Assembly (NCBI GenBank): GCA_965116875.1
Contig: OZ220733.1
Location: 320,001-384,000 of the forward strand
Length of the DNA: 64,000 bases
DNA from: Candidatus Latescibacterota bacterium
GTDB taxonomy: Bacteria; Latescibacterota; UBA2968; GCA-2709665
Reading direction: 5' to 3'
Shown here one piece after another: positions 1 to 13,956 of this stretch. The notes under the pieces were generated by a model. The model was not told the DNA's origin. It searched no databases and worked only from the letters and a program-made list of their open reading frames with translations. The position numbers and the translations under genes are program-made. Every line of letters starts with the position of its first letter. The stretch's first letter is position 1.

Positions 1-188
1 AGCAGCACAAGTGCGGAACGAAACCGTTTTCCGCCTCGAATCGGGTAATCCCGCATCGGTTCGTACAGGTATCCGAATGGCTCGGCCCGAGGCAGAAACC
101 TGAAAAGCTCCGCATCGATGAGGGGTACAAAGGACTCGAGATAAGACTTCAGGCGATCGTTCACCGTCAGGTCCCTCGCGCTCTTCAC
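1..188 (-). CDS. Polyprenyl synthetase family (GGPP/FPP synthase-like), 5' part only; runs off the window edge
   Basis: Not in the ORF track. Manual translation of the minus strand gives ...VNDRLKSYLESFVPLIDAELFRFLPRAEPFGYLYEPMRDYPIRGGKRFRSALVLL, with the GGKRxR motif of trans-isoprenyl diphosphate synthases. The start codon (GTG at 188) is uncertain. Confidence 0.75.
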   Translation of the reverse strand, partial: MKSARDLTVNDRLKSYLESFVPLIDAELFRFLPRAEPFGYLYEPMRDYPIRGGKRFRSALVL

Positions 189-380
189 CGGGATGTTGAT
201 TCCAACTTTTTTCCCGGGGTGTTATCCGTGCGGCAAGACGCCCGTTGTCTACGCAATACGCCGGAGGCAATCCTGACCGCTGCGTGGAGGAAACGGTACC
301 TCGCGGGTTCTGATTCCGGGTAGCGAGATGAGCAGGATTGCTACGCAGGAAGGAGGAGGTTGGGGAGGAAGTTGCCCGGA

Positions 381-409
381 AATATAGCGACAAGCCTGCA
401 TGCGGTCAA
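381..409 (-). promoter_or_regulatory. Putative sigma70 promoter for the polyprenyl synthase
   Basis: Minus strand reads TTGACC-N17-TATATT. Confidence 0.55.
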
Positions 410-469
410 CAGTTTTTGGAATTCATCCGGAAACGCGGCGAACCGGTCCCCGAACGGCGAGGGGACGCA

Positions 470-1420
470 TCAGAGCGCCGTGTGCAAGCAGCGATAGGCA
501 TCGAATACGATCCCCAGATCCCGTCTGGCTTTCGAATAGTTCGAATACGGCTCGAGGCTCCGGTCTTCCAGGCAGCGCAGAAAGTCCCGCGACATCTCCC
601 GATACCCCATCAGATCCGAAATCCCCGGAAAGTACATTCGGACGCCTCGAGGTCCCTTGTGGAGTACATACAGGCCATTGCTCTCAAAGACGATCTGTCC
701 GCGCGTTCCATGAATCCGGGAGTGCTGAAAGACGCCGTTCGTGCGGCTGTTCGTGTTCCACGAATACCTTAATTCAGCCGTCACGTTTCCGGGATAGGTC
801 AATTCAACAACCGACGTCCGCTCCGGGTCTCCGTCGCGACGTCCTGGAAACCGTCCAACGACGCGTTCCGGCGCACACTCGAACATCGCGGAAATCAGCG
901 CGACAAAATGGATACCCCCTTCGAGCAACGCCCCGTACTTGCGTTTCCAGCCGGCCGCCGTCTGCGTGAACATCTTCTTCACGTGGATCGACCTGATGTC
1001 TCCAATCCATTGCCGTGCGGTCAATGTCCTGATTCTCTCGAGCAATGGCTTGTAGTAGTAGTTTTCGGCCACCATCAACAGCGCTTCCGGTTGCGAAGCC
1101 ACCGCGGCGCCGACCGCTTCCACCTCCTCCGGATTTACGCACATCGGTTTTTCGACCATCACGTGCTTGCCCGCCGTGAGTGCGCGTATCACCTGGTCCT
1201 TGTGGAACTCGGGCGGGGATGCAATGACCACCGCGTCGATAACGGGAGATGCCAGCGCATCCTCCACGCGCGGGAAGCTGCCGCTGCCCCGAAACTCACT
1301 GTTGAAACGCCGGGCGCTCTGTTCGGATCGACTGCAGAAAAAGAGCTCGGCTGCGCCCGATAGATTCTTCGCGTGCAGGCGGGCGATGGTCCCGCAGCCC
1401 ACCAGACAGATTTTTTTCAT
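470..1420 (-). CDS. Gfo/Idh/MocA family NAD(P)-dependent oxidoreductase
   Basis: N-terminal GCGTIA Rossmann motif, GKHVMVEKP motif, GALLEGGIH. Confidence 0.9.
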   Translation of the reverse strand: MKKICLVGCGTIARLHAKNLSGAAELFFCSRSEQSARRFNSEFRGSGSFPRVEDALASPVIDAVVIASPPEFHKDQVIRALTAGKHVMVEKPMCVNPEEVEAVGAAVASQPEALLMVAENYYYKPLLERIRTLTARQWIGDIRSIHVKKMFTQTAAGWKRKYGALLEGGIHFVALISAMFECAPERVVGRFPGRRDGDPERTSVVELTYPGNVTAELRYSWNTNSRTNGVFQHSRIHGTRGQIVFESNGLYVLHKGPRGVRMYFPGISDLMGYREMSRDFLRCLEDRSLEPYSNYSKARRDLGIVFDAYRCLHTAL

Positions 1421-1479
1421 TTCACCGATTCCCGGGAGGCAACGTCCTGTTTTCCCGACAACGGACCGGGAGCAGGTGT

Positions 1480-2976
1480 CTATCCATGTTCCGCGTGAAT
1501 GACGTCCGCAACGCGTAACGCGTTGGCTGCGATCGTAAGGCTCGGATTGACCCCTCCCGAAGTGGGCATAAAACTGCCGTCGAGTACGAACAGATTGTCG
1601 ATGCCGCGAAACCTGCAGGACTCATCCAGAACGCTTTCCCGGGCGAGGTTTCCGAAACGCAGGGACCCCACCGCGTGAGAAAACGTCTCCAGGTTGTAAA
1701 TGCGGTGATACAGTCCGCCTGCCTGCTTCAAAACGCGCCTCGCCCTGTCTGTCAGATATTTCCTTCGGAGGCGGTCCCGTTCCGAATATCGATGAACGAC
1801 GCCGGTAACCGCGACTCCGTAGTCGTCCAGTCGAGAGGTCAGATGCACCCGGTTTTCATATTGGGGTTCGTCCTCCGCAATACAAAGCAGATTCTGAAGA
1901 TAACGCGCCATAAAGGCGGTCAGATTCCCGTATCCGAAGGGCGCGAAGTGCTTCAGCACCTCCGGCGCGGGGGTGTAGATGTCCTGAATGGTTCCCACCG
2001 ATGTCCCCAATCGGTCCCTCAGGTCTTCGTAGAAATCCGTAAAGCACAATTGCTTGTGAAAAATGCGGTCGGGATTGGTCGCAAAGGGAAAGAGTCCGGT
2101 CACCACGGCGTTGCAGTGCCGCATCAAAAAGCGACCGATCAGGCGGTGATTGTCGAGTCGATCCAGACCGGAACGCAACAGAATGGCCGGGCTCTGCAGT
2201 GCCCCGGCGCTGAGAATCACAATCTTCGCGCTGAAATCGACCGCCCGGTTTGATGCTCCGTCCAGACACCGGACCCGTACGACCCTGCCGTTACGGGTTT
2301 CCAGCTGCAGGACGATTATCCCGGGCATGACTGCCAGGTCGAATGTCTGTGCCTTTGCCAGAAGTGTCTTGGCCACGTCGTTCTTGGCTTCGATGCGGCA
2401 TGGAAATCCGTCGCAGGTGGAACACCGGATGCAGACCGGCCGGTCTTTGTTCGTGAAATTCAGCGCCAGCGGAATCTTGAAGGGCCGGTGCCCGAGCGTC
2501 TTCGCGGCCTCGTAGATCCGCTTCGCCGGGGGCGTGAGTTCAATCCCTCCGAAACGATATTTCCCGGATCTCGGCGGCTCGTGCATATCCGCCCCCGCCT
2601 GACCATGCACCTCCAGGAGATGCTCCGCCTTCGTATAATATGGCTCCATTGCCGCGTAATCGACCGGCCAGTTGGAGAAATCCTTCTCGCGCAATCGCAG
2701 GGACGCCCCGCCGTAAAATACCGACATGCCGCCGACCGCTTCGTTCGGAAAGACGGTCTGAAGGCCCCCCTCGCCTTCTACCTCCATCGGCGAACGGCTT
2801 CTGTACCGCTGATCGATCAGGATCCCGCGCGGGTCCCAGTCCAGCGAATCCCGCTTCACCCACCCGCCTCGTTCGAGCAGAAGCGTCCGAAAACCCGCCC
2901 GGCTGAGCGCAAACGCCGCAGCGCCGCCGCCGAGACCCGAACCAATCACGATGGCTTCATAGGGTCGTGAGCTCAT
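1480..2976 (-). CDS. GMC family FAD-dependent oxidoreductase
   Basis: IVIGSGLGGG FAD motif, VGGMSVFYGG, CxxCxxC Cys cluster, C-terminal H..GSLRFG and GVNPSLTIAANALR. Start placed at MSSRPYE (2976), overlapping the upstream gene's stop. Confidence 0.9.
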   Translation of the reverse strand: MSSRPYEAIVIGSGLGGGAAAFALSRAGFRTLLLERGGWVKRDSLDWDPRGILIDQRYRSRSPMEVEGEGGLQTVFPNEAVGGMSVFYGGASLRLREKDFSNWPVDYAAMEPYYTKAEHLLEVHGQAGADMHEPPRSGKYRFGGIELTPPAKRIYEAAKTLGHRPFKIPLALNFTNKDRPVCIRCSTCDGFPCRIEAKNDVAKTLLAKAQTFDLAVMPGIIVLQLETRNGRVVRVRCLDGASNRAVDFSAKIVILSAGALQSPAILLRSGLDRLDNHRLIGRFLMRHCNAVVTGLFPFATNPDRIFHKQLCFTDFYEDLRDRLGTSVGTIQDIYTPAPEVLKHFAPFGYGNLTAFMARYLQNLLCIAEDEPQYENRVHLTSRLDDYGVAVTGVVHRYSERDRLRRKYLTDRARRVLKQAGGLYHRIYNLETFSHAVGSLRFGNLARESVLDESCRFRGIDNLFVLDGSFMPTSGGVNPSLTIAANALRVADVIHAEHG

Positions 2977-3757
2977 AGACGTACAGAACCGCCAATCCAA
3001 CGATAATGATCCACGCCATATAGTGGTATTTCTCGCGTGTCTCAATGTATCGTGTTATACGCGGCAGGTCCGGCCTGAACTTGCCGGACATCGTGCGTTG
3101 CACGTAGGTCTTGTAGTACTCGACCAGGAATCGTTCCAGTCCGCCGTTCATGAAGATCAGGTAGCCGATTGGTACCGGCGACGTCGGATCGTTCGAGTAA
3201 AAGAAAACGGGTGAACAGATGGCGAGCACGATGGACGAACGGAAGAATTTCAGGGGCGCGAATCCCTCGAAGGGAGCGTCTTTGTATGCGCCTCCAAGAG
3301 AAACCAGCATTCCCGTGGCAAAAGCGACGGCCGCGAATACCGCGAAGTCGACGATTCGCAATGAGAGAAACAGAATGGAGAATACCGCCGAAACCAGTAC
3401 AACGCCCGAGAAGAGGCGCAACGGCTCGCAGGTCACCGGCCGGCCGAAGAAAGTGATTCTGGATGGCACCGCGTATTTCGACTGATCCTCGGATCTGAAG
3501 AATCCCTTGTACAGCTCCGCGAGGAACCGCTCCAGGCCCATGACGACGAAGAAAACCTGAAACAGGTTCAATTGGCGGAAATTCCCGGAAAAAAAGGGCA
3601 GCCAATAGAGCGCGCAGAAAATCACGGCATGAAAATAGACGCTGCGGGGAAACGTGCGGCGTTTCAGGCCCTCAAAGGGGGAGTCCTTGAATGCGCCCCA
3701 CAACGAGGTGTACAGACCTGAAACCAGACTGACGAAAAACGGGATCCAAAAACCCAT
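2957..3757 (-). CDS. Uncharacterised multi-pass membrane protein with a two-fold internal repeat
   Basis: Hydrophobic helices; repeated GAFKDSPFEG/GAYKDAPFEG and GLERFLAELYK/GLERFLVEYYK; coupled to the GMC gene. Confidence 0.8.
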   Translation of the reverse strand: MGFWIPFFVSLVSGLYTSLWGAFKDSPFEGLKRRTFPRSVYFHAVIFCALYWLPFFSGNFRQLNLFQVFFVVMGLERFLAELYKGFFRSEDQSKYAVPSRITFFGRPVTCEPLRLFSGVVLVSAVFSILFLSLRIVDFAVFAAVAFATGMLVSLGGAYKDAPFEGFAPLKFFRSSIVLAICSPVFFYSNDPTSPVPIGYLIFMNGGLERFLVEYYKTYVQRTMSGKFRPDLPRITRYIETREKYHYMAWIIIVGLAVLYVYELTTL

Positions 3758-3806
3758 AAGCTACCGCCCTGCCTGCCGGAGAGTCGGGAACAATCCACGA
3801 ACGGAT

Positions 3807-3835
3807 AAGATAAATCCTCACGTGCGACCCGTCAA
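3807..3835 (-). promoter_or_regulatory. Putative sigma70 promoter for the membrane protein-GMC-Gfo operon
   Basis: Minus strand reads TTGACG-N17-TATCTT. Confidence 0.5.
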
Positions 3836-3955
3836 GACGCAGGCAAAAAAAGGACAGAACACGTGAAGGCGCGCGTATTCTGTCTTCGAGGCAATTGCGT
3901 TCCAGTCGGGAAGATCAGGATCTTCGAGCCAGCGGGACCCCGGCCTGCCAACGGG

Positions 3956-6403
3956 TTACGGCCGCGCACTTCCTGCTTTGACCGGTCCCCCCCTCCGCTT
4001 GAATCGATCCAGAATCTCGAGGACGGCGGGCAGGACAACCACGGCCGCGACAAAACAGGTCAGAAGGCCGATTACGGCCAGCTTTCCAATGGAGTTCAAG
4101 CCGGGATGTCTGGCGGTGATCAAGCCGAAAAAGCCGATCATCGTCGTCATCATCGATACAAGCATCGCGCCGCCGGTATTCCGGAGGATCACCGGTATCG
4201 AGTCCGCGCCCTCTTCCTGAAACCTGTGGAACAGATGCACACCGTTATCGATGCCCATCCCGATGATGGTGGGCAAGGCCACCATATTGTAGAAATTCAA
4301 TTTCATCCCGGTCAGGAACATGCTTCCACACATCCAGATGGCGCCGCAAATCAGCGGCAACATGACCAGCAGCCCGTTTCGGATGCTTCTGAAATCGATG
4401 AAAACGATCAGGAAGACGACCAGAAGCGTGATGCCGATCGCCCACCTGCTGTCACGGATCATCAATTTAAGCATATCCGCGAAAATGATACTGGAACTGG
4501 ACGAATAAAACGCCCTTCCGGATTCGGTCGTGATCAGGTGCGTGTCGTTCGCGAACTCGATCGCCTGTCGTCCGTCTCGAAGTTGCACGCTGGGATAGAT
4601 GAAGGCGAAATGGGCACGGCTGCCGTCGACGGTTGCGAATTTTCGCAGGATGTTCTTCGGAAGGTCGTCCACATGCAGTTTCTTCACGTCCATCAATTCC
4701 CGCAACTCGTCCACTCGCTCCTTCTGCTCGCCTTTCAGCAATTTCGCGCCTTCGCCGTCCACCAGTTCGCGCAGTTCGGCGATCAACGCCAGTTTCTCGT
4801 CCTCCTGCCGGGGAAGGAAGGACCAGAGCGTCCTGATCTTGTCAATTGTCGGCGTCGGATCGTCGGAATCGATCTTGCCGTTTACAGTATCGACGACTTC
4901 ATCCAGCTCTTCCTTGCTGTCGGCCAGTACGACGCTTGGTGAATGCGACTCGCCCCTGAACTTCGAGAGCGAATTGATCTTGTCTTTCACCTCTTTCGAA
5001 GTGGCGAGATTGGAACGCAGGTTGGTGAAATCATACTCAAACTGGATCCGGTCGAGATTGAAGGCCAGGTAGACCGTGCCGGCGATTGCAACCACGAACA
5101 CAACCGGCGCCAGGGGAAACCGGCCCTTTCCGGAGCCCCGGTGGTGTCCAAGCACATACCGCATTCGCACCAGCTTCAGGCGTTCGTCGGCAAGAACGAG
5201 AAAGGCCGGAAGTACCACGGTCATTGACACCAGAGACATGACGATCCCCGTGCCAACGATAAAACCGAATTCCGAAAACCCCTTGAAATCCGTAATCGTA
5301 AGCGAATAGAACGCCATCGAGGTGGTCAGCGCGGCCGTCAGGATGGCCTGGCCCGTCTGGATCAGCATGGTCTCGACCGATTGCCTGACATCCATATTCG
5401 CCATTCGATCTTCCAGGTACCGGGAGAACATGTGAATGCCGAAATCGATTCCCAGACCGAACAGGATCACGAACAGGAATCCGGTCATCGTGTTCAGATT
5501 GCCGATCACCCAATAGGTGATGGCAAAAGCCCACGTCAGCCCCATGACGAGCGGAATGGCAACAAAAAAAGCAGCCAGTGGCTGCCTGAAATAGAACGTG
5601 AGAAGCAGGACGACACCGATGAATCCGAATATGACCGTCGACTTGATATCGTCCAGAATGACGTTATATTCATCGATCTTGTTCTTGTACGAACCTCCAA
5701 TGGAGACGATCATCCCCGGATGGTAGGATCCCGGATCGAGCGTCTGAACGGCGTTCCGGATGACGCCGTACATCTCTTTGGCGAATCCTATATTGCTCAC
5801 CGTTCCCGATGCCATCACCTCAACCGCAACGATCGTACTGTCCGCGTTGGTATAGTATACTTCGTGCCCGCGGTCTCCATTCTCCTTGTACTTCGACTCG
5901 ATATCCGAAAAATCCAGCGGCTCGTCGTCTTCGCCGTCGTCCAGACTGAAGAACAACGGGGATAACTTCAGCTTCTCCTGCCGGATACGATCGTCAATTC
6001 GCAGCTGGATGTCCTCGAGGTCATCGAGATCCATATACAGCAGCGCGTTTTCCTTGAAAAAATCCACTTCACGCTTGAAATCAACGTAATTTACGTATTT
6101 CCAGTACTTTTCGGCCTTCAGTTCAACAAACAGGTCTTCCACGAATCTTCTGGACGCCGAGAAATCCCCGCATTCCGCCAGAACAACCAGGCTTCCCACG
6201 CCGCCCAGCCGCGCCTTGATATCTTCGAGCGTCTTCACGCTGGGATAGTGTTCCGGGATCAGGGCCGCGATATCCGTCTCGAGGCGCTGGATCAGACGAT
6301 AGACAAAAAAACTGCAAAAAATCGAAAGAAGAGTCGAAACAATAACAATAACGGCGTGTCGTCGATAGACAAAGTCCGCCAGAAACCTCAACCTATCCTG
6401 CAT
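3956..6403 (-). CDS. MMPL/RND family transporter (HpnN/BstA-like lipid exporter)
   Basis: 815 aa; two repeats of TM + periplasmic domain + TM bundle, with GLGIDFGIH and GMGIDNGVH motifs. Confidence 0.9.
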   Translation of the reverse strand: MQDRLRFLADFVYRRHAVIVIVSTLLSIFCSFFVYRLIQRLETDIAALIPEHYPSVKTLEDIKARLGGVGSLVVLAECGDFSASRRFVEDLFVELKAEKYWKYVNYVDFKREVDFFKENALLYMDLDDLEDIQLRIDDRIRQEKLKLSPLFFSLDDGEDDEPLDFSDIESKYKENGDRGHEVYYTNADSTIVAVEVMASGTVSNIGFAKEMYGVIRNAVQTLDPGSYHPGMIVSIGGSYKNKIDEYNVILDDIKSTVIFGFIGVVLLLTFYFRQPLAAFFVAIPLVMGLTWAFAITYWVIGNLNTMTGFLFVILFGLGIDFGIHMFSRYLEDRMANMDVRQSVETMLIQTGQAILTAALTTSMAFYSLTITDFKGFSEFGFIVGTGIVMSLVSMTVVLPAFLVLADERLKLVRMRYVLGHHRGSGKGRFPLAPVVFVVAIAGTVYLAFNLDRIQFEYDFTNLRSNLATSKEVKDKINSLSKFRGESHSPSVVLADSKEELDEVVDTVNGKIDSDDPTPTIDKIRTLWSFLPRQEDEKLALIAELRELVDGEGAKLLKGEQKERVDELRELMDVKKLHVDDLPKNILRKFATVDGSRAHFAFIYPSVQLRDGRQAIEFANDTHLITTESGRAFYSSSSSIIFADMLKLMIRDSRWAIGITLLVVFLIVFIDFRSIRNGLLVMLPLICGAIWMCGSMFLTGMKLNFYNMVALPTIIGMGIDNGVHLFHRFQEEGADSIPVILRNTGGAMLVSMMTTMIGFFGLITARHPGLNSIGKLAVIGLLTCFVAAVVVLPAVLEILDRFKRRGGPVKAGSARP

Positions 6404-6406
6404 GAA

Positions 6407-7030
6407 TCATTCCTTCCCTTTCCCGTCTGCCTCGTCCTCATTCAGCTTGTCTCTGAGTTTCTTTACAAGACCCTCGTACGACGACTTGCGGATCTCCTTG
6501 TAGAACTGAGATCGATTGTTTCTGGCAACGCTCAGATCGTCAATCACCATATCGTACACCAGCCACTTTCCATTGACCGGGTGGAGCTTGTAGTCGATAT
6601 CGCTCTGCTCATCCTTATAGTGTACGATTGTCCGGACAACACCTTCCGTACTGTCGACCTCCGAGCCCACGTACTCAATTCTCTCGGATTTCGTATACAG
6701 CTTCGGATCCGCGTAATTCCTGACGATCAGACGCCGGCACAGGTCTGCAAACTCAGCCTTCTCCGCCTCATTGCGCCGCTGCCAGTGGCGGCCCAATGCG
6801 ACCTTGCCGAACCGGTGAAAATCGAACATGCCTTCCACGATCGCCTTCAGCTGTTCCCGCTCTTCCGCTGTTTCTCCCGCAGTTTCCGAATTGACGATTG
6901 CCTTTATCGAACTGTCCCGTTCCTTCATCGACCGGAGCAACTGTTCAGCCTGGTCCGCACCCTGTGCGAAGGCCCCGCCCAAAAACCCAACAAGGGCATA
7001 AAACACAATAATATACGACAATATTCTCAT
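6407..7030 (-). CDS. MlaC/Ttg2D (HpnM-like) periplasmic lipid-binding protein
   Basis: Signal peptide; FDFHRFGKVALGRHW and WLVYDMVIDDLSVARNNRSQF are typical of MlaC. Confidence 0.88.
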   Translation of the reverse strand: MRILSYIIVFYALVGFLGGAFAQGADQAEQLLRSMKERDSSIKAIVNSETAGETAEEREQLKAIVEGMFDFHRFGKVALGRHWQRRNEAEKAEFADLCRRLIVRNYADPKLYTKSERIEYVGSEVDSTEGVVRTIVHYKDEQSDIDYKLHPVNGKWLVYDMVIDDLSVARNNRSQFYKEIRKSSYEGLVKKLRDKLNEDEADGKGKE

Positions 7031-7145
7031 TTTATCCAGTTCCTTTTTCGGCCGGAAACAAAACGACCCGGCACAGGAACACCACTCCGGCCGGTTCGAT
7101 ACCCGTTCGCTGCTTCCGATAATTTCCCTGCCAGCATCTTGCTCT

Positions 7146-8585
7146 TCAATCCGCCTTTCCCGAAACCAGCTTCCCGGCTTCCGTGGCGCGGGTCCGCATG
7201 ATGTGCCCGATGAATCCGAAAACGGCGCTCACGACAAGGCCGGACCCGAGCACGAAAATCCAGAAAATCGCCTCAAGACAGTTCAAAACCGCCAGAACAC
7301 AGAACAGTGCGGCGAAAAAGTCCCGGCGACACGCGAATTTCAGTCCGCAGTAGACGCGGTGCAGATATCCGCGGCGTTCTTCCGGCACTTCGCTTGAGAA
7401 ACCCATGTTGAAGCTTACGATACTGCCCGATCCGCTCTGCTTCAGGTAGACGCAAATGAGCAGGACCGCAAGCACATTCAACGCAAGGGCGATGAAACCC
7501 AGCGCGATGACAACTGGTTCCGTTGTCAGTCTGTACATCCCGAAAATGACGCCTGAGAAGAATCCAAGATAGGATACGTTGTCCGCGACCGTATCCAACC
7601 ATTCCCCAAAGCGGGATCCCGCGAACTTCAGCGTGGCGACCTCGCCGTCGCAGCCGTCGACAACAGACGCAAACTGAAAGAGCAGCCCTCCCAGCGCGAC
7701 GTAGAAATGGCTCCCCTCCGCCATCGCCCAGCCTGCCAGAAACGTGATCATCATTGCGGCGATTGAAATCTGGTTGGGCGTCACCGGCGTTTTTACCAGG
7801 AATCCGGAAATCCAGGAGGAAATCTTCCTGTTGAAATGGCGCGACACAATCCCGTCAGTCGGCTTGCCCAACTGACCGAACAATGCCGTTTCTCCCTGGC
7901 GCAATGCTTCCGGCGTATCCACGTCCTGCCAGAACATGCCATCGATGTCAACCGCCCTCATGTTTCCTCGCGACGCGATGATCCGGACGCCGCCCGAGAG
8001 CGTTTCGTCGCCGCCGGCAGCGGCAAGCTCAAGGCCGTCGAACAGCGCCTGACTGCAGAGAAAGATACCCGTATCCACCGCGTCGTATTCTCTCAGCGCC
8101 TTGCCGATCTTCCGGATCCGGTCGCCTTCGAGGACGACTTTGGTCGCGTCATCCAGATCCTGTATCCGGTCCAGCCGCGTGTCTATGCACAACGCCGACT
8201 CGCCCGCGCCCAGCAACAGACCCCGCATGAGGGTGATTACCTTCGGCTCGAACAGATGGTCCGCCATCAACAGAAGAAACGTGCCATCCACGTAATCACG
8301 CGCTTTCAGAACGGAAAGGCCATTTCCCCGCTTCCAATCCGGGTTTTCAATCCAATCTATATTCACGTCGATCTGCGGGTCATTTGCGATGGCTTCGCGT
8401 ATTTCATCGCCCCGATAGCCAATGACGATGGCAAACTCCGAGATCCCCGCTCTTCTTGCGGTCAGAATGGCCCTCTTCAACAACCCCACGCCGGCGACTT
8501 TGACAAGCGGCTTCGGTCTGCCACATCCTTGTCCGTTCAGGCGGCTGCCCATACCGGCAGCAATAATCACCGCCTTTTTTACCAT
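7146..8585 (-). CDS. Bifunctional NTP-transferase / CDP-alcohol phosphotransferase (IPCT-DIPPS-like)
   Basis: AAGMGSRL...PKPL nucleotidyltransferase motif; KPTDGIVSRHFNRKIS linker; DGCDGEVA...GEWLDTVAD CDP-alcohol motif; GGAGGG RBS before ATG at 8585. Confidence 0.9.
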   Translation of the reverse strand: MVKKAVIIAAGMGSRLNGQGCGRPKPLVKVAGVGLLKRAILTARRAGISEFAIVIGYRGDEIREAIANDPQIDVNIDWIENPDWKRGNGLSVLKARDYVDGTFLLLMADHLFEPKVITLMRGLLLGAGESALCIDTRLDRIQDLDDATKVVLEGDRIRKIGKALREYDAVDTGIFLCSQALFDGLELAAAGGDETLSGGVRIIASRGNMRAVDIDGMFWQDVDTPEALRQGETALFGQLGKPTDGIVSRHFNRKISSWISGFLVKTPVTPNQISIAAMMITFLAGWAMAEGSHFYVALGGLLFQFASVVDGCDGEVATLKFAGSRFGEWLDTVADNVSYLGFFSGVIFGMYRLTTEPVVIALGFIALALNVLAVLLICVYLKQSGSGSIVSFNMGFSSEVPEERRGYLHRVYCGLKFACRRDFFAALFCVLAVLNCLEAIFWIFVLGSGLVVSAVFGFIGHIMRTRATEAGKLVSGKAD

Positions 8586-9943
8586 GACACCCTCCCGGTA
8601 CCCTCCAGTATCGAAGTTCCCGTCGCGCGCTGCAGTGCCATCCAGGCGAGATTGAACTCCAATACAGCCTGGTAGTACTTGGCGCGAATTATGCCGTACT
8701 CTTTCACTGCATCGACCATTTCTCCCGCCTCCTCCAGCCCCGCATTGAACCCGTCTCTCGCCGACACAAACCACCGCCGGGTTGCGCGGCGGGCCTTTCG
8801 AGCCGCCTCGATATTGGCTTTCGCTTCGATGAGCGAAAGATAGGCGCTCTCGATCTCAAGCCTGGCGCCCTGCGCCGCCAGCTGAGCCTGATAGCCGAGT
8901 TTTTCGTAGGACAGACGGGCTTCTTTCACCTTTGCTCTTGTACTTGCGAATGACAATGACTGCCGGAAGCCCAGCACGGCGCCCAACTCAGTCACGTTGA
9001 ACTCGTCTTTCAGAAACGGGTTCCGCTGGCGGTCCCTGTTCGGCGCAAAACCGTATTTGAACCGGCCGGCCAGGAAAACCTGTGGAAACAGGTCTGTTCG
9101 GACGGCGCGCACCTGCGCCGACCGCACCCGCAGAACTTCCCGAAGCTGCCCCAGATCCGGGCGCCCCTCGACGCGCGACAGATAAGTTTCCAGTGGACGG
9201 ATCTGAACGTCAACCGGCCTCAGAATTCCTTCCGCCAGAACAAGGGAATCGGACTCAGAAAGCCCAATGAGAGTCCGGAGCGCCGAACGTGCGATCCCCT
9301 GACTCTTGACAACCCTGTTTGCATTCTCCTCCACGTCGAAAACAAACCTGTCAATACGGTGCAGATCGGTATACGTAAAATCCCCCGTATCGGCATCCAG
9401 CTTTTCGACGATCGTTCGCCGCGCCCTGTCGATTTCCCCACGGGACTCGAGCGCCAGTTCCCGAAGCTGATTCGCCAAAAGCAGCAGATAGTAGGCCCTC
9501 GCGACCTCTTGCTCCAGGTCGAATCGGGATCTGGTCAGACCGGCGCGCTGCGCTTCGATACCCCCGGATGCAGCTTCCACCGCGGCATTGAGCTTTCCAA
9601 AGGTGAAGAGTGGCTGAACCAGCGACAATTCGGTCCTTGTAAACACACTCATCCGCCGCCAGTTGCTCTCCCCGGTAAGCGCGTCGCCTCGAGCCTCAGG
9701 CGATGGCCCGACCGTCCACGTGAAATCCAGCCCTGGAAGAAATCGCGCGGCATGCACCTGCCGGAGCCTGTTCTCCGCGATGTGCAGATCCGCCCTGGCG
9801 GCCTGAATGGATGGACTCGACGCAAATGCCATCCGAACGCACCCGGCGAGATCGTATTGGGGCTGTCCGGATTCGGAATCGCACGGACGGATGCCGATCA
9901 CGACAGCGAAGACCATGACAATTGAAGCAGGATACTTTGTCAT
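8579..9943 (-). CDS. TolC family outer-membrane efflux protein
   Basis: Two OEP-like repeats (QPLFTFGK, VARAYY, FPQVFL, IESAY); signal-peptide-like N-terminus from MTKYPAS (9943). Confidence 0.85.
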   Translation of the reverse strand: MTKYPASIVMVFAVVIGIRPCDSESGQPQYDLAGCVRMAFASSPSIQAARADLHIAENRLRQVHAARFLPGLDFTWTVGPSPEARGDALTGESNWRRMSVFTRTELSLVQPLFTFGKLNAAVEAASGGIEAQRAGLTRSRFDLEQEVARAYYLLLLANQLRELALESRGEIDRARRTIVEKLDADTGDFTYTDLHRIDRFVFDVEENANRVVKSQGIARSALRTLIGLSESDSLVLAEGILRPVDVQIRPLETYLSRVEGRPDLGQLREVLRVRSAQVRAVRTDLFPQVFLAGRFKYGFAPNRDRQRNPFLKDEFNVTELGAVLGFRQSLSFASTRAKVKEARLSYEKLGYQAQLAAQGARLEIESAYLSLIEAKANIEAARKARRATRRWFVSARDGFNAGLEEAGEMVDAVKEYGIIRAKYYQAVLEFNLAWMALQRATGTSILEGTGRVSW

Positions 9944-10107
9944 GTGTGAATTTTTACGACACGTGTGGGAAAATTGCAACGCCTCCCCCGTTAACCTCCC
10001 GGACAAACGGCGAATGGATTCAAGCGGAAAAAGCAGAAGGATGTTCGGATATATCAATGCAACCTTCACTCGAAACCTGATTTTCTATACGAAATCAGTA
10101 CATTAAA

Positions 10108-10123
10108 AGCGAAATTCGTGCCA
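10108..10123 (-). promoter_or_regulatory. Putative sigma54 (-24/-12) promoter upstream of the TolC operon
   Basis: Minus strand TGGCACGAATTTCGCT (GG-N10-GC), one mismatch to the TGGCACG-N4-TTGCW consensus. Confidence 0.6.
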
Positions 10124-10149
10124 CAAGACTGTGAATCTGCAACACATAC

Positions 10150-11406
10150 TCAGGCACTCAACGCTTCGACGATAATGGTCTGAACACGCCGGGCCACTTC
10201 GACAGCGTCATGCCGTTGCACGGCTGAAACCCGGGCGGCCGAACCCATTCGTCGTCGCAATTCCCTGTTCTCAATCATTTTGATGATGGTATCCGCGAGG
10301 CCGGAGACGTCGTTCGGCTTCACCAGGAATCCATTGTAACCATCCCTGATCAACTCCGGTACACCGCCTGTTGCAGATCCGACCACCGGAGTTCCAAGTG
10401 CCAGAGATTCGATAACGCTTCTGGGACAGGGGTCGGGCGCCACGGATGGTACCAGCGTGACGTCCATGTCTTTCAAATACGGTCGGACGTCCGTCCGGAA
10501 TCCCGTAAACAGAACCCGTCCGGAGTACCGTCCGTTGGCCACTTCGCGACGATAGCGATCCAAAAGGTTCGATGACCGCTGCGGGCACCCGCCTACAACC
10601 ACCAGAACCACGTCGTCACGCTTCGCCAGCACCCGCTTCATTGCCGACAACAGGGTGCCGATCCCCTTCCACTCTACAATTCGTCCGACAAAGCCCAGAA
10701 CCACCTCGTCCGGTCCGATTCGGTACATCCTGCGCACGCACCCCTGAACGGTTTCCGGATTGAAACTGACCAGGTCCGCGCCATTGTACACAACCTGAAC
10801 CTTGTCCTTTGCCGACGGAAAATTGCCTGCGCACGCCTCGGATACCGCGACAATTCTTGCCACGCTGGCAGACCGCGCGAGTTGGTCGAAGAACCAACCT
10901 CTGAAGCTCTTTCCGTAAAGGGTGCGGCAGTGCCAGATGACCGGTGTGCCGCACACCATACCCGCCACGGTGCCCATGAACTTCACCATCATCTGGTTGC
11001 AGTAAATCAGCCCGACGTTTTCCTGGGCGACCACGCGAACCAGATCGAACGTAAACCGTATGCTGTCGATCGCGTTCAGGACCACCGACGCCATTGTGCA
11101 GATGCGGTTCCGGCCCCTGAAGCGCATCTCCGCGAGACGCTCCTTCAACCGGGGTTCGATTCGGTACGGGACGCGTATCTCCTCAAGCCTGCTCTTCAAC
11201 ACCCCTTCGTTGGGCATGACGACCAGGGGCTCCAGCACACCGCGATCGAGATGTTTCAACAGGTAAAACAGACTGTTTCCTGCCCCTCCACGCCCCGTAC
11301 AACCCGTCAGAAAGAGTACCTTGATCTTTCCGGCGCCCTCTTCCGGGCACAAAACTGGCGACGATTCACCTGCCTCGTCGCCCCTTCCAACGAAACGACC
11401 GGTCAT
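10150..11406 (-). CDS. Glycosyltransferase family 4 (GT-B)
   Basis: VVYNG, FVGRIVEWKG, DPCPRSVIESLALGTPVVGSATGGVPELI. Confidence 0.9.
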   Translation of the reverse strand: MTGRFVGRGDEAGESSPVLCPEEGAGKIKVLFLTGCTGRGGAGNSLFYLLKHLDRGVLEPLVVMPNEGVLKSRLEEIRVPYRIEPRLKERLAEMRFRGRNRICTMASVVLNAIDSIRFTFDLVRVVAQENVGLIYCNQMMVKFMGTVAGMVCGTPVIWHCRTLYGKSFRGWFFDQLARSASVARIVAVSEACAGNFPSAKDKVQVVYNGADLVSFNPETVQGCVRRMYRIGPDEVVLGFVGRIVEWKGIGTLLSAMKRVLAKRDDVVLVVVGGCPQRSSNLLDRYRREVANGRYSGRVLFTGFRTDVRPYLKDMDVTLVPSVAPDPCPRSVIESLALGTPVVGSATGGVPELIRDGYNGFLVKPNDVSGLADTIIKMIENRELRRRMGSAARVSAVQRHDAVEVARRVQTIIVEALSA

Positions 11407-13037
11407 CAGTTCAGCCGCCTGATAATGTGATACCCCAGGGGTGTCTGAACGACCCCGCTGGTCTCACCCACCCGCAACTTCAGCACCGCTTCCTCGAACG
11501 CCGGATTCAGATCGCCTGGTGAAAAAAACCCCAGGTCGCCCCCGGTCTCCGCAGAGGTATCGCTGGAGTGCTGACGCGCAAGTACTCTGAAATCCTCGCC
11601 CGCCTCGAGTTTGTTCAGGATTTCCTGCGCCTCGACTTCGGTTTCCACGAGAATATGGTACACCCAGAGTTTTCCTGACTGTATCCCATCGATTTCATCT
11701 ATCTTCATCTGTGCCGCACCCGCGATTTCTTCGTTCGGGCTGTATACGATGGCTTTTTCGAAGGCACGCCTGGCTTGATCGAACGCCCGCCTCGAAGTCA
11801 GGGCGAGACCGATATTGAAGAGAACGCCAGCGTTCGTGGAATCCACCGCTAAAGCCCTGTTGTAGACCACGAGGGCCGAGTCCAGATCTTGCTGACCCGC
11901 GTAGATCAAGGCAAGATCACCGTATGGCTCGAGGACGTTCGGGTTCGAACGGATCGTTGCTTCCAGCGCCGACTTTGCCTGCGCGATGTCTCCCTTCTGC
12001 AGGTAAACCTGCGCCACACCGTTCTCGAGACGCGCGCGTTGCGATTCAGGCGCAATCTCCATAAGCAAACGATACTCGTTCAGCGCGAGGTCCCATTTCT
12101 GCTGAACCGTATACAGGCGTGCAAGCGCTGAGCGGGTATCCAGATCCCGAGGTTCCAGCCGAGACACCTTCTCCCACGCTTTCCGCGCAATCTCCAGTGA
12201 GTCCACCTCAGCCGCCATCTGACCCATGGAACGATGCACCTCGGGATCGTCCGGCGCCAGCGAAGCTGCCTGCCGGTATGCGGCGAAGGCTGCCTCGGTC
12301 CGGCGCATCGAATGATAGATGGCGCCCTTGTTCACCAGCAGGGAGACGTCGTTCGGACTCTTCTCGAGTTCCTTCTCCAGAACCGAAATTGCCCGTTCGT
12401 ACAACCGGTTCGCATCCTGAGGTTTACCCAAAGCGCCGTAGATCTGACCCTGATTAATCATCAGGACCACACTTTCAGGGTTGTTCTTCAGTCCCTCATC
12501 AAAAACCGAAAGCGCTTTGTTGGGGTCTTTCAGCGCGACGTGTACGCCAGCCAGGGACTGGTAGGCTTCTATATTTCCGGGATCCAGGGAAATCGCGGCC
12601 CTGAGGTCCTGAACCGCCAGCCCGGGATTCCCGGCCTCCTGATAGAGTATCGCCCTGTCCATCAGCAGGAGTACGGAATTCGGAATCTGCGTTATTCCGC
12701 GGTTCAATACGTCCAGCGCCTCGCGTCCCCTGTTGAGCTGTGCATGAATCCTGAATAGCGCATCGTAAGGCGCTTCAAGATCCGGCCCCAGCTCAATCGC
12801 CGTTTCAAAGGCTTCGATTGCGCCTGCCGGCTGTCCCAACTGTGCGTACACCATGCCGAGGACGCCGTGAGCGTTCGCGCTGTCAGGAAATGTCTTTGCG
12901 AACAGTTGAGCCGTTACGAGCGCGGAATCGGCTCGTCCGTGAGCGCCATGCGCGCCGATTTCCGCCAGGAAGTCCCTGGCGGTCGCGCCCTCACACCAGA
13001 GAACCAGGCAACACAAGACAACAATCGTCCGTTTCAA
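11406..13037 (-). CDS. Secreted TPR-repeat protein with a C-terminal PpiC/parvulin peptidyl-prolyl isomerase domain
   Basis: Signal peptide, many TPR repeats, then HILV...GEDFRVLARQHS.D...GGDLGFF...FEEAV...QTPLGYHII. Confidence 0.88.
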   Translation of the reverse strand: MKRTIVVLCCLVLWCEGATARDFLAEIGAHGAHGRADSALVTAQLFAKTFPDSANAHGVLGMVYAQLGQPAGAIEAFETAIELGPDLEAPYDALFRIHAQLNRGREALDVLNRGITQIPNSVLLLMDRAILYQEAGNPGLAVQDLRAAISLDPGNIEAYQSLAGVHVALKDPNKALSVFDEGLKNNPESVVLMINQGQIYGALGKPQDANRLYERAISVLEKELEKSPNDVSLLVNKGAIYHSMRRTEAAFAAYRQAASLAPDDPEVHRSMGQMAAEVDSLEIARKAWEKVSRLEPRDLDTRSALARLYTVQQKWDLALNEYRLLMEIAPESQRARLENGVAQVYLQKGDIAQAKSALEATIRSNPNVLEPYGDLALIYAGQQDLDSALVVYNRALAVDSTNAGVLFNIGLALTSRRAFDQARRAFEKAIVYSPNEEIAGAAQMKIDEIDGIQSGKLWVYHILVETEVEAQEILNKLEAGEDFRVLARQHSSDTSAETGGDLGFFSPGDLNPAFEEAVLKLRVGETSGVVQTPLGYHIIRRLN

Positions 13038-13122
13038 CCGACCGCCTCCATTTTAAAGAGTTATTTCCAGGTTTCTTCCCGATTACCACAGATCGCTCCG
13101 GTTCCGTTCGCCCTCGAAACCC

Positions 13123-13151
13123 TTGACATGCCACTGGAATCCCTTTATTAT
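13123..13151 (+). promoter_or_regulatory. Putative sigma70 promoter for the DUF1648-DMT genes
   Basis: TTGACA-N17-TATTAT, near consensus. Confidence 0.65.
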
Positions 13152-13332
13152 GCCGTGGATTTCGACTCGCCCGGCACGGCGCGACGGGTTGCGATTTCAG
13201 GGTGCGCAAGCCGCGCAGCACGTCGACCCGTCAAACTCACGGCGACGATAAAGTCCGGGCCGCCAAAGGTGACTTCCAACCGGAATCCCCGGCCCGCGAC
13301 GACCACGCCCCCCAACGCACGGTTCTCCCAGA

Positions 13333-13956
13333 ATGAGCGTCCTTCAACGGGACCCCATTGCCGCCATCCTTCTCGCGTTTCTGGCGAGCTATCTGGCCTA
13401 CGACCATCTTCCGGAACGGATACCGGTACACTGGAACGCGTTCGGACGGATCGACGCTGAGTTGAACAAACGCGTGGGCGTTTTTCTGCATCCCGGCGCA
13501 ATGACTCTCGTCTATGTGTTCTTTCGTCTGATCCCTTTTGTTGACAGGAACCGCGTGCGCCAATTGAAAGACGTCGGTCTCTACGATCCATTCCGAAACG
13601 GAGCGGTCCTCCTGTTCGGCTACAGCCATCTCCTGTTGTTGGGCATCGGCCTCGGGTGGATAGACCGCGGGGCGAACCTCTTTGCCGGCCTGCTTTCACT
13701 CGCCGCCATCCTGGCGGGAAATCACGTCAAGAGCATACGCCCCGCCCGGTTCGATCGTCTCCTTCACGGGATCGGCGTTTCCAGCGCTCCACCCGCGCCG
13801 GCTTACGTCTGCAACGTCCTGATCCTGAGCGGAGTGATCGGGCAGGCAGGCACTGCAACGGGCACGCTGCAACTGCCGTGGTTTCTTGTACCGCTGGCCG
13901 TCGGATACGTTCTCTTACGCCGCCGCTTCCCCACCGACCGGACACCGGCGCCGTGA
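13333..13956 (+). CDS. DUF1648 / SdpI-like membrane protein
   Basis: YDHLPERIPVHWNAFGRID motif followed by several TM helices. Confidence 0.75.
   Translation: MSVLQRDPIAAILLAFLASYLAYDHLPERIPVHWNAFGRIDAELNKRVGVFLHPGAMTLVYVFFRLIPFVDRNRVRQLKDVGLYDPFRNGAVLLFGYSHLLLLGIGLGWIDRGANLFAGLLSLAAILAGNHVKSIRPARFDRLLHGIGVSSAPPAPAYVCNVLILSGVIGQAGTATGTLQLPWFLVPLAVGYVLLRRRFPTDRTPAP

Follow-up and report, generated by a model that had tools for sequence, protein, structure and literature searches.

What does an enzyme built like a synthase of soluble di-myo-inositol phosphate (DIP) do when its gene is set among those for an outer-membrane protein and periplasmic lipid carriers? The question is raised by a 64-kb stretch of DNA from a Candidatus Latescibacterota bacterium (contig OZ220733.1; G000:C1:320001-384000), hereafter the window, which belongs to a host genome of 5.45 Mb assembled as a single contig and 97.7% complete. 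On its minus strand the window carries, in order, genes for a TolC-like outer-membrane protein, a fusion of NTP-transferase and CDP-alcohol phosphotransferase domains (P0001), a periplasmic protein of the MlaC family and an inner-membrane transporter of the HAE3/MMPL type (Table 1). We propose that these genes constitute a sigma-54-controlled operon that makes an inositol-phosphate envelope lipid, and exports that same lipid, in an order of Latescibacterota. Judged from sequence comparison, this reading has in our estimate a probability of about 50%.

The four genes are closely packed, and every long family-matched open reading frame (ORF) between positions 470 and 13037 lies on the same strand as they do. 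The homology-supported ATG of the fusion gene, at 8585, shares 7 nt (ATGGTAA) with the stop codon of the TolC-like gene (TAA, 8581-8579), and the GGGAGG Shine-Dalgarno sequence of the fusion gene sits inside the 3′ end of the TolC-like gene. Further downstream, the MlaC stop codon TGA is followed by the three nucleotides TTC and then by the MMPL ATG. A membrane-fusion (MFP) domain of the AcrA/HlyD kind was found in none of the nine ORFs scanned, and a search of window positions 1-13500 against Rfam returned a sole match, to RyhB, which at 25.6 bits is below the threshold of 55 and was taken as noise. The first-pass annotation, made from the letters of the window, had described four co-oriented genes, a TolC/fusion overlap, a 3-nt MlaC-MMPL spacer and the lack of an AcrA-type adaptor, and the ORFs, domains and spacings recovered here agree with it on each point. 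Near-identical contigs from metatranscriptome run X1 fall on the TolC-like gene (8774-9035 and 9296-9583), the fusion gene (7955-8193) and the MMPL gene (5866-6106), and also span the MlaC/MMPL junction (6262-6877). They are compatible with expression of these genes, with the limit that assembled contigs of one run may include DNA carry-over and do not permit a single transcript, a transcription start or non-expression to be deduced.

To compare the cluster across organisms, a scan of one genome per species was used to collect 80 loci with relatives of the enzyme, and these were compared by tblastn with nine window proteins. The order TolC-fusion-MlaC-MMPL was found in all 16 loci L008-L023, whose enzymes are 57-95% identical to that of the window and whose source genomes are Latescibacterota or mislabelled, and in each of them the TolC orthologue lies directly upstream of the fusion gene. 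When 121 genomes from the phylum were sampled, all members of family f1 (12/12) and of family f2 (29/29) proved to have the enzyme as a full-length orthologue (at least 57% identity); in more distant families the homologues were weaker, split or missing (for example, 0/13 in f10). That the TolC-like, fusion, MlaC and MMPL genes are a conserved unit, as the first-pass annotation had it, is therefore supported by gene order, and its proposed neighbourhood survey comes out in favor of the linkage; the unit is also larger and more modular than four genes. Genes for a membrane protein designated TM266 and a GMC-family oxidoreductase continue the order in 15 of the 16 loci (the contig of L008 ends earlier), and a GFO-type oxidoreductase gene follows in 9. 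In genome G062 the cluster is split, with TolC-fusion and a sigma-54 motif at 3.25 Mb and MlaC-MMPL-TM266 at 4.31 Mb; in the split locus L103 the TolC orthologue remains joined to the fusion gene.

Upstream of the TolC-like gene lies the sequence TGGCACGAATTTCGC, in which GG and GC are ten bases apart; it is located 27 nt past the stop codon of an upstream GT4 glycosyltransferase gene and ~166 nt ahead of the TolC ATG. Matches to a loose sigma-54 consensus (at most 2 mismatches) are not above chance in the window (47 versus 56 expected), so the weight of the assignment rests on the exact conserved motif. In the form TGGCAY-N4-TTCGC, this motif occurs 1 time in 64 kb, against 0.15 expected, and 17/17 loci of the window's type (L008-L023 and L103, our group 1) have a single copy of it on the coding strand upstream of TolC, as against 0/86 other loci. 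When eight upstream regions were aligned, TGGCA and TTCGC appeared as islands of identity amid diverged intergenic DNA, and these islands are kept despite differences in the upstream gene, which encodes GT4 in the lineage of the window and an LPG_synthase_TM protein in L017. The -12 element reads TTCGC, as compared with TTGC in the consensus. The genome contains one rpoN and 15 matches to enhancer-binding proteins at more than 199 bits, none of them within the window. Thus, the putative sigma-54 promoter, which had been called from its GG-N10-GC spacing, is well supported by motif conservation. Immediately before the TolC ATG, the eight diverged loci share a second block (GTTGY...ACAnGTGT...TTCACA); it is possibly a sigma-70-like promoter (TTGCAA-N17-TAAAAA) that would give a near-leaderless mRNA, or possibly an operator containing the palindrome ACACGTGT. 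Elsewhere in the genome, a sigma-54 enhancer-binding protein (G000:C1:2303183-2304827; 530-aa frame) is encoded directly upstream of a CDP-alcohol transferase gene (L005, PgsA-like, 58 bits), and another lies ~6 kb from the gene for inositol-phosphate synthase (MIPS; 639050 versus 632556).

The fusion enzyme aligns over residues 3-416 with the bifunctional enzyme of A. fulgidus (PDB 4mnd; 182.6 bits, E 9.2e-53), in which a CTP:inositol-1-phosphate cytidylyltransferase (IPCT) is joined to a synthase of di-myo-inositol phosphate phosphate (DIPPS, the product being DIPP). Its N-terminal part matches NTP_transf_3 and the cytidylyltransferase structures 2xme (E 2.7e-30) and 4jd0 (E 3e-17), which identifies a putative CTP:inositol-1-phosphate cytidylyltransferase domain, and R15, K25 and D109 are invariant in alignment A1. 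In a quick IQ-TREE phylogeny of 81 fusion proteins, a sample biased to the 80 loci most similar to an alignment of the window's own clade, the sequences split with an SH-aLRT of 99 into a clade A of 36 rows and ~480 aa, which includes the window, and a clade B of 45 rows and ~440 aa. Short-type MIPS genes lie directly upstream of 22/45 clade-B genes and 0/36 clade-A genes, and the tree places the window enzyme apart from the MIPS-linked, DIP-synthase type. Conversely, TolC or MlaC is linked to 25/36 clade-A enzymes and 0/45 of clade B, with the clade-A links spanning at least four lineages (Latescibacterota, a group labelled 'Gemmatimonadota', KSB1 and Methylomirabilota).

Differences between the two clades concentrate around the acceptor side of the transferase. 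The signature D-x2-D-G-x2-A-R-x8-G-x3-D-x3-D is incomplete in the window enzyme, which keeps the four aspartates and both glycines and has T318 in place of the arginine. At this position clade B has arginine in 45/45 rows, and the 36 rows of clade A include 15 with lysine, 8 with arginine and 6 with valine. The residue that follows the fourth aspartate is likewise arginine in 45/45 clade-B rows and most often asparagine in clade A (N 25, G 4 and D 4 of 36; N336 in the window), and position 339 is D in 45/45 and Y in 28/36, respectively (Y339 in the window). Alignment with phmmer pairs D335-N336 of the window enzyme with D93-R94 of M. tuberculosis PgsA1 (6h53) and with the D-R pairs of AF2299 (4o6m) and DIPPS (4mnd). 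According to the available text on PgsA1, R94 adjoins the catalytic D93, contacts the phosphate of inositol phosphate, is critical for binding and is conserved among those enzymes whose substrate is inositol phosphate, and the substitutions R94K and R94Q nearly abolish activity (PMC6506517). As an internal control, a gene of the host genome resembling phosphatidylinositol-phosphate synthase (PIPS) retains both the A-R and the D-R pairs. Because the acceptor-phosphate-binding arginines have been lost, we infer that clade A no longer accepts phosphorylated inositol and so makes no DIPP. The separate clade, the loss of these arginines, the lack of an adjacent MIPS gene and the envelope-lipid neighbors together support the view, put forward in the first-pass annotation, that the enzyme is not a classical synthase of soluble DIP.

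These observations suggest a pathway in which, by homology, the N-terminal domain would make CDP-inositol from CTP and the inositol-1-phosphate of a distant MIPS. The membrane-embedded CDP-alcohol phosphotransferase domain would then transfer phosphoinositol to an alcohol that bears no phosphate and is probably a lipid, instead of to a second inositol phosphate, with diacyl- or dialkyl-glycerol, ceramide or a glycolipid as candidate acceptors. A lipid is favored because of the lost arginines together with the gene context: in several phyla, clade-A neighborhoods contain TolC-like, MlaC, MMPL, DUF3047, MOP flippase, LPG_synthase_TM and GT4 genes. Loss of the arginines would, of course, suit any non-phosphorylated acceptor, and phosphoinositol might instead go onto a lipid-linked glycan, a lipopolysaccharide-like glycolipid or a teichoic-acid-like polymer, with the transport genes exporting the product or the lipid donor. 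We regard this alternative as unlikely, while recognizing that parts of the gene neighborhood suit it. GT4 genes stand upstream of the operon in L008-L014, and the operon of L018 has a different GT4 gene within it, placed after the fusion gene and before MlaC. In another seven loci (L025-L028, L030, L032 and L074; enzymes 41-45% identical; genomes labelled as Gemmatimonadota, KSB1 or 'bacterium'), TolC-like and MlaC genes are found 2-5 kb downstream of the enzyme, and MMPL is absent. In L025 the interval between the fusion gene and TolC/MlaC encodes a methyltransferase, a MOP (Wzx-like) flippase, a second CDP-OH paralogue and a DUF3047 protein, with an alkaline-phosphatase-type phosphodiesterase and a radical-SAM enzyme beyond the last of these. 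Wzx-like flippases, methyltransferases and radical-SAM enzymes of this kind characterize the group-2 loci (L025-L028 and L032), together with a phosphodiesterase of the alkaline-phosphatase superfamily, of a type that transfers phospho-head groups in the periplasm. The group-2 loci have two paralogous fusion enzymes and DUF3047 and are without MMPL; loci of the window type have one enzyme, MMPL, the sigma-54 motif and the TM266 module. The operon of the window, however, has neither a MOP flippase nor a polymerase. Moreover, MlaC-family proteins and HAE3/MMPL transporters are known, as families, for small lipids and not for polymers (for HpnN/HpnM, see the available text of PMC12324291).

Related loci contain further combinations of the same genes. 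A locus of Latescibacterota (L029 10001-12805) encodes a 934-aa protein in which a clade-A fusion enzyme is joined to a second NTP-transferase-like/CDP-OH unit, and it is flanked by genes for methyltransferases, a radical-SAM/SPASM enzyme and a MOP flippase. MlaC-DUF3047 fusion proteins are encoded in L030 and L074. Two DUF3047 genes are found elsewhere in the host genome (G000:C1:2648496-2649017, 148.5 bits, and 4930387-4930827, 90.1 bits); in other organisms DUF3047 is fused to MlaC or to relatives of TM266, and 0/14 control genomes were matched.

To return to the lipid-export proposal, the remaining three proteins of the operon bear on how the product might leave the inner membrane. The TolC-like protein has a hydrophobic signal-like segment at its N-terminus and matches the OEP family in two stretches, scoring 86.8 bits with TIGR01844 against a cut-off of 225. 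The MlaC protein has a signal peptide ending ...AFA/QG (alignment A4) and scores 67.3 bits with the HpnM model TIGR03481, for which the cut-off is 160.1. The MMPL protein, with a mean column identity of 77% in alignment A3, is likewise below the cut-offs of HpnN (TIGR03480; 321.5 versus 751.85 bits), BstA (217.3 versus 1400), HAE3 (202.3 versus 351.9) and NF052374 (207.9 versus 1100). On the grounds of family functions and conserved linkage, we propose that the HpnN-like MMPL protein takes the product from the inner membrane and hands it to the periplasmic MlaC-like carrier, from which it might be delivered either at the TolC-like protein or by way of it, with no AcrA-type adaptor. A complex prediction for MMPL and mature MlaC, which had been suggested as a check, gave a score of 0.36, as compared with 0.01 for the best of 3 controls, with at least 94% of contacts agreeing between runs and a pLDDT (the predictor's per-residue confidence) of at least 76 for the partner. 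Of solved complexes 58/80 reached the mark for such scores, as did 2/110 mismatched pairs, and those that reached it with scores of 0.60 or below comprise just 7 of the 80 and both of the mismatches, so that the model lends weak support to an MMPL-MlaC contact. Of the first-pass proposal that a head group is added to a lipid that is then exported, the departure of the enzyme from the DIPPS type and its envelope-lipid neighbors stand, and the lipid acceptor, the identity of the head group, co-transcription and an MlaC-TolC contact are putative.

Two established assemblies of such proteins were considered and rejected. A tripartite, TolC-dependent RND efflux pump, which would have a periplasmic adaptor and an RND protein of the HAE1 type, is disfavored by the absence of an MFP domain from the nine ORFs and by an ACR_tran score of just 18 bits, below the cut-off of 28. 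An HpnN/HpnM hopanoid pair is disfavored by the failure of the proteins to reach any curated cut-off and by the lack of a convincing squalene-hopene cyclase in the genome, where PF13243 yields just a partial match of 25.3 bits in a 289-aa frame. Because such a cyclase was not convincingly found, hopanoids are an unlikely cargo in the host.

Alternatively, MlaC, MMPL and the TolC-like protein could provide general transport or homeostasis of outer-membrane phospholipids, with the fusion enzyme merely co-located or co-regulated and its product not a specific cargo. This possibility, which seems to us quite unlikely, finds some encouragement in the fact that the genome has one MlaC-family gene, in the separation of the gene pairs in G062 and in the occurrence of the triad next to hopanoid synthesis in a locus of Methylomirabilota (L035 1-11401). 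In the latter, TolC-MlaC-MMPL precedes a gene for squalene-hopene cyclase (499.8 bits), beyond which come long-type MIPS and clade-A fusion genes, 5 kb from the triad, so that genes for hopanoids and for an inositol head group share a neighborhood; because it stands beside the cyclase, the TolC-MlaC-MMPL triad looks like a reusable lipid-export module. A purely general role is nevertheless difficult to reconcile with the behavior of the TolC-like gene, which stays coupled or adjacent to the fusion gene even after MlaC-MMPL has moved away, or with the presence of TolC and MlaC beside clade-A enzymes of other phyla in a different gene order, when no clade-B row has such links.

A third alternative would take the homology of the enzyme at face value and make it a soluble-solute synthase, producing DIP or a related phosphodiester osmolyte among functionally unrelated neighbors. 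The likeness to the IPCT/DIPPS of A. fulgidus (4mnd; IPCT domain 2xme) extends to the two-domain architecture, the four signature aspartates and both glycines, several databases label relatives of the window enzyme DIPP synthase, and the best NCBIfam model is NF041135 (IPCT/DIPPS). The score with this model, however, is 254.8 bits, less than half of the cut-off of 580, and NF041135, being specific to Thermococcales, has no power to split the clades (clade-B fragments also score 249-261 bits). Relative to the DIPPS type, the window enzyme falls in a separate clade, has lost both arginines that are kept throughout clade B, has D339 replaced by Y and has a longer loop between transmembrane helices TM4 and TM5, with SGSGS and RRDFF motifs conserved in it; its gene has no adjacent MIPS and is set among outer-membrane and lipid-carrier genes, neighbors of an envelope-lipid kind that are conserved across phyla. 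Synthesis of a soluble solute is thus very unlikely.

The identity of the head group was considered separately. In the cytidylyltransferase domain, the two clades share 49 positions with a conservation of at least 85%, and 2 positions are specific to clade B. Although no MIPS gene is adjacent in the window, one is located ~305 kb from the operon (C1:632556-632882), and MIPS is present in 10/11 clade-A genomes tested, the exception being a 3.6-Mb metagenome-assembled genome. In L035 and L075 (2/36), the gene immediately upstream of that for the clade-A enzyme is a long-type MIPS. Given the conserved domain, these two upstream genes and the distribution of MIPS, inositol is likely to be the head group. 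That it is some other alcohol phosphate (cyclitol, glycerol or glycerate), giving a lipid with a different phospho-head group, is most unlikely in view of these shared positions and MIPS genes, even though the family is plastic, with phosphoglycerate in CpgD and phosphocholine in relatives according to the available text of bioRxiv 10.1101/2025.01.09.632243, and the nearby GFO and GMC oxidoreductases could make a modified cyclitol.

The PIPS-like gene noted above lies at G000:C1:1848771-1849172 (L006 1339-2004, plus strand), with scores of 175.4 bits for NF052561 (cut-off 350), 151.2 for archaetidylinositol-phosphate synthase and 124.9 for PIPSynth, all below the cut-offs. The organism may therefore also make ordinary phosphatidylinositol by way of phosphatidylinositol phosphate, and since the PIPS-like gene would use the product of MIPS, the latter is not specific evidence for the fusion enzyme. 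A PcrB/GGGPS-family gene for prenylglyceryl-phosphate synthase (131.9 bits; G000:C1:5064334-5064990; L094, and L095 8296-9042 on the minus strand) has housekeeping neighbors (AlaRS, a PEP-utilising enzyme and SAM synthetase), with no link to the operon found; it hints at isoprenoid ether lipids, a conceivable class of acceptor. A locus of Methylomirabilales (L075 5489-15074) encodes GFO/IDH/MocA, a CDP-OH paralogue, the long MIPS, the clade-A enzyme, LPG_synthase_TM and a purple acid phosphatase; its second CDP-OH paralogue also has D-N after the fourth aspartate, and the locus resembles the inositol-lipid neighborhoods of Bacteroidetes.

Several points weigh against the proposal that the operon makes and exports a phosphoinositol lipid. 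The tree on which the clades are based was drawn from a sample biased toward clade A. Within clade A, 11/36 rows have no TolC or MlaC in reach and 8/36 retain the signature arginine, so that the signature is not uniform; and the residue argument excludes a phosphorylated alcohol as acceptor and does not name the real one. The MlaC gene is the sole MlaC-family match in the genome and the single match to the MlaD family (MCE) is far off, at C1:4778771, and the MlaC-MMPL-TolC route could accordingly be one of general lipid homeostasis; the triad of L035, adjoining a squalene-hopene cyclase, may serve hopanoids rather than the fusion enzyme. With respect to the head group, the PIPS-like gene could by itself explain the presence of MIPS, and related cytidylyltransferases use other substrates, such as the phosphoglycerate of CpgD (bioRxiv 10.1101/2025.01.09.632243, available text). 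Finally, the RNA evidence consists of the assembled contigs of one run, which may represent DNA and are no proof of a single transcript. We nevertheless favor a lipid product at the probability given above. A more far-reaching version, in which a whole order of Latescibacterota would build its outer membrane in part from a phosphoinositol lipid by means of an acceptor-switched enzyme, an adaptor-less HAE3 RND-MlaC-TolC relay, sigma-54 control and TM266 as an extra component, is tentative and on balance doubtful.

Table 1. Features of the operon and its surroundings, in window coordinates, with the evidence for each.
Feature	Position	Strand	Length and evidence
TPR-PPIase	11406-13037	-	
GT4 glycosyltransferase	10150-11406	-	Pfam Glycos_transf_1, 125.5 bits; context only, operon membership uncertain
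Sigma-54-type -24/-12 motif TGGCACGAATTTCGC (GG-N10-GC)	10109-10123	-	Cross-locus conservation
Second conserved upstream block	9945-9980	-	Alignment of eight diverged upstream regions
TolC-like outer-membrane protein	8579-9943	-	454 aa from ATG 9943; Pfam OEP, 136.1 bits
NTP-transferase/CDP-alcohol phosphotransferase fusion (P0001)	7146-8585	-	479 aa; NTP_transf_3, 49.2 bits; CDP-OH_P_transf, 32.3 bits
MlaC-family periplasmic lipid-binding protein	6407-7030	-	Pfam MlaC, 115.4 bits
HAE3/MMPL-type RND inner-membrane transporter, HpnN/BstA-like	3956-6403	-	815 aa; MMPL, 139.7 bits
TM266, orphan two-repeat integral membrane protein	2957-3757	-	No Pfam/NCBIfam family
GMC-family FAD oxidoreductase	1480-2976	-	Pfam GMC_oxred_N and GMC_oxred_C; start overlaps TM266 end
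GFO/IDH/MocA NAD(P) oxidoreductase	470-1420	-	Pfam; best model inositol 2-dehydrogenase TIGR04380, 79.4 bits versus cut-off 355

Downstream of the MMPL gene, and separated from it by a terminator-like hairpin and a sigma-70-like site, lie the genes for TM266 and the two oxidoreductases. TM266 consists of two repeats marked by the motifs GAFKDSPYEG / GAYKDAPFEG and LERF..E.YK, has a mean column identity of 67% and is modelled by AF2 with a pLDDT of 82.8 and a pTM (predicted TM-score) of 0.84. Its fold found no convincing relative in the searches made: the best Foldseek match in the PDB had an E of 0.34, the best in a wide VIA-align search had a Z of 6.7, within helical-bundle noise, and the ESM Atlas returned hypothetical clusters only. 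Counting the host genome itself, 37/42 f1 and f2 genomes have TM266 no more than 10 kb from the fusion gene; of the remaining five, two have it on another contig, one has it far away and two gave no match. Among the genomes sampled it occurs in just one class of the phylum (f1 10/12, f2 29/29, f3 40/41, other families 0/38). Because the TM266-GMC-GFO trio stands alone, without the other genes of the operon, in 6/6 f3 loci examined (L096-L101), it is by gene order a separable module, one that may modify or otherwise handle the same lipid. In run X1 the three genes are represented by 34-37-nt pieces and no near-identical contigs, a kind of data that cannot show absence of expression. A profile search for TM266 returned 315 representative proteins. 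Of 10 long matches that were scanned, 6 were bare, 1 carried DUF3047 (69.6 bits), 1 carried RecX, probably through a gene-call fusion, and 2 carried VTT/DedA at 31.2 and 26.3 bits, below the cut-off of 33.9. The rare DUF3047 and sub-threshold VTT/DedA fusions loosely link TM266 to the same lipid-traffic network.

The chemistry proposed for the fusion enzyme has a precedent in Rhodothermus marinus, in which MIPS, IPCT and BEPIS, a synthase of dialkylether glycerophosphoinositol, carry out CDP-inositol-dependent lipid synthesis, as described in the available text of two reports (PMC4587543, PMC9246714). In the described chemistry, as in our reading of the window, the head group is activated as CDP-inositol and moved to a lipid alcohol. 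The R. marinus genes, however, are separate and form an operon-like unit with MIPS, whereas the window has a fusion gene, a distant MIPS, transport genes and a sigma-54-type motif. An alternative cluster of Bacteroides vulgatus and Prevotella has likewise been proposed, without confirmation, to support CDP-inositol-dependent lipid synthesis, and both inositol-lipid clusters of Bacteroidetes have a neighboring gene that resembles lysyl-phosphatidylglycerol synthase (Heaver et al. 2022, PMC9246714, available text). That cluster also combines an NTP-transferase with a CDP-alcohol phosphotransferase, and LPG_synthase_TM genes, similar to its lysyl-phosphatidylglycerol-synthase neighbor, are present in L017 and L075; in Bacteroidetes the genes are separate, lie by MIPS and a HAD hydrolase and are described without transport genes, which the window possesses.

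With regard to transport, hopanoids have been proposed to travel by an HpnN-HpnM-HpnS relay in which the MlaA-like HpnS is the outer-membrane partner; TolC goes unmentioned in the available text of the preprint (PMC12324291). Like the window, this system pairs an HAE3/MMPL-type RND protein with a periplasmic MlaC-like protein, and the window proteins score highest with the HpnN and HpnM models; it differs in that the window scores are far under the cut-offs, the partner gene is OEP/TolC-like and the host lacks a convincing squalene-hopene cyclase. The Mla pathway (MlaFEDB-MlaC-MlaA) similarly places an MlaC-family carrier between two membranes, but in the window the inner-membrane partner gene is RND/MMPL, the outer-membrane partner gene is TolC-like and MlaD is far away. 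No published description of the operon was found in the literature on inositol in Latescibacteria, CDP-inositol, HpnN/HpnM or Rhodothermus. The suggestion that the genes represent an undescribed system therefore holds for the operon and does not extend to CDP-inositol lipid chemistry, which is known in R. marinus and proposed in Bacteroidetes. What appears to be new, from comparison of sequences, is the fused clade-A enzyme, marked by the signature at its acceptor site, the conserved tight coupling of its gene to a TolC-like one, the grouping of both with MlaC and MMPL behind a conserved sigma-54 motif, and the occurrence of the enzyme in every f1 and f2 genome sampled. Activation of a CDP-inositol head group for transfer to lipid is already precedented, as is, by proposal for hopanoids, the pairing of an RND protein with an MlaC-like one.

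Bacterial inositol lipids are rare, and their synthesis by head-group activation has been shown in just one bacterium, according to the reports consulted. If the proposed reading is correct, this chemistry would reach into a large phylum of uncultured bacteria, some members of which are sponge-associated. Loss of the arginine after the fourth catalytic aspartate would then separate lipid-type from solute-type enzymes, all of which are currently annotated as DIPP synthase. In addition, the arrangement of the operon would suggest a way for non-standard lipids to arrive at the outer membrane, namely an adaptor-less route composed of RND, MlaC and TolC-like proteins.

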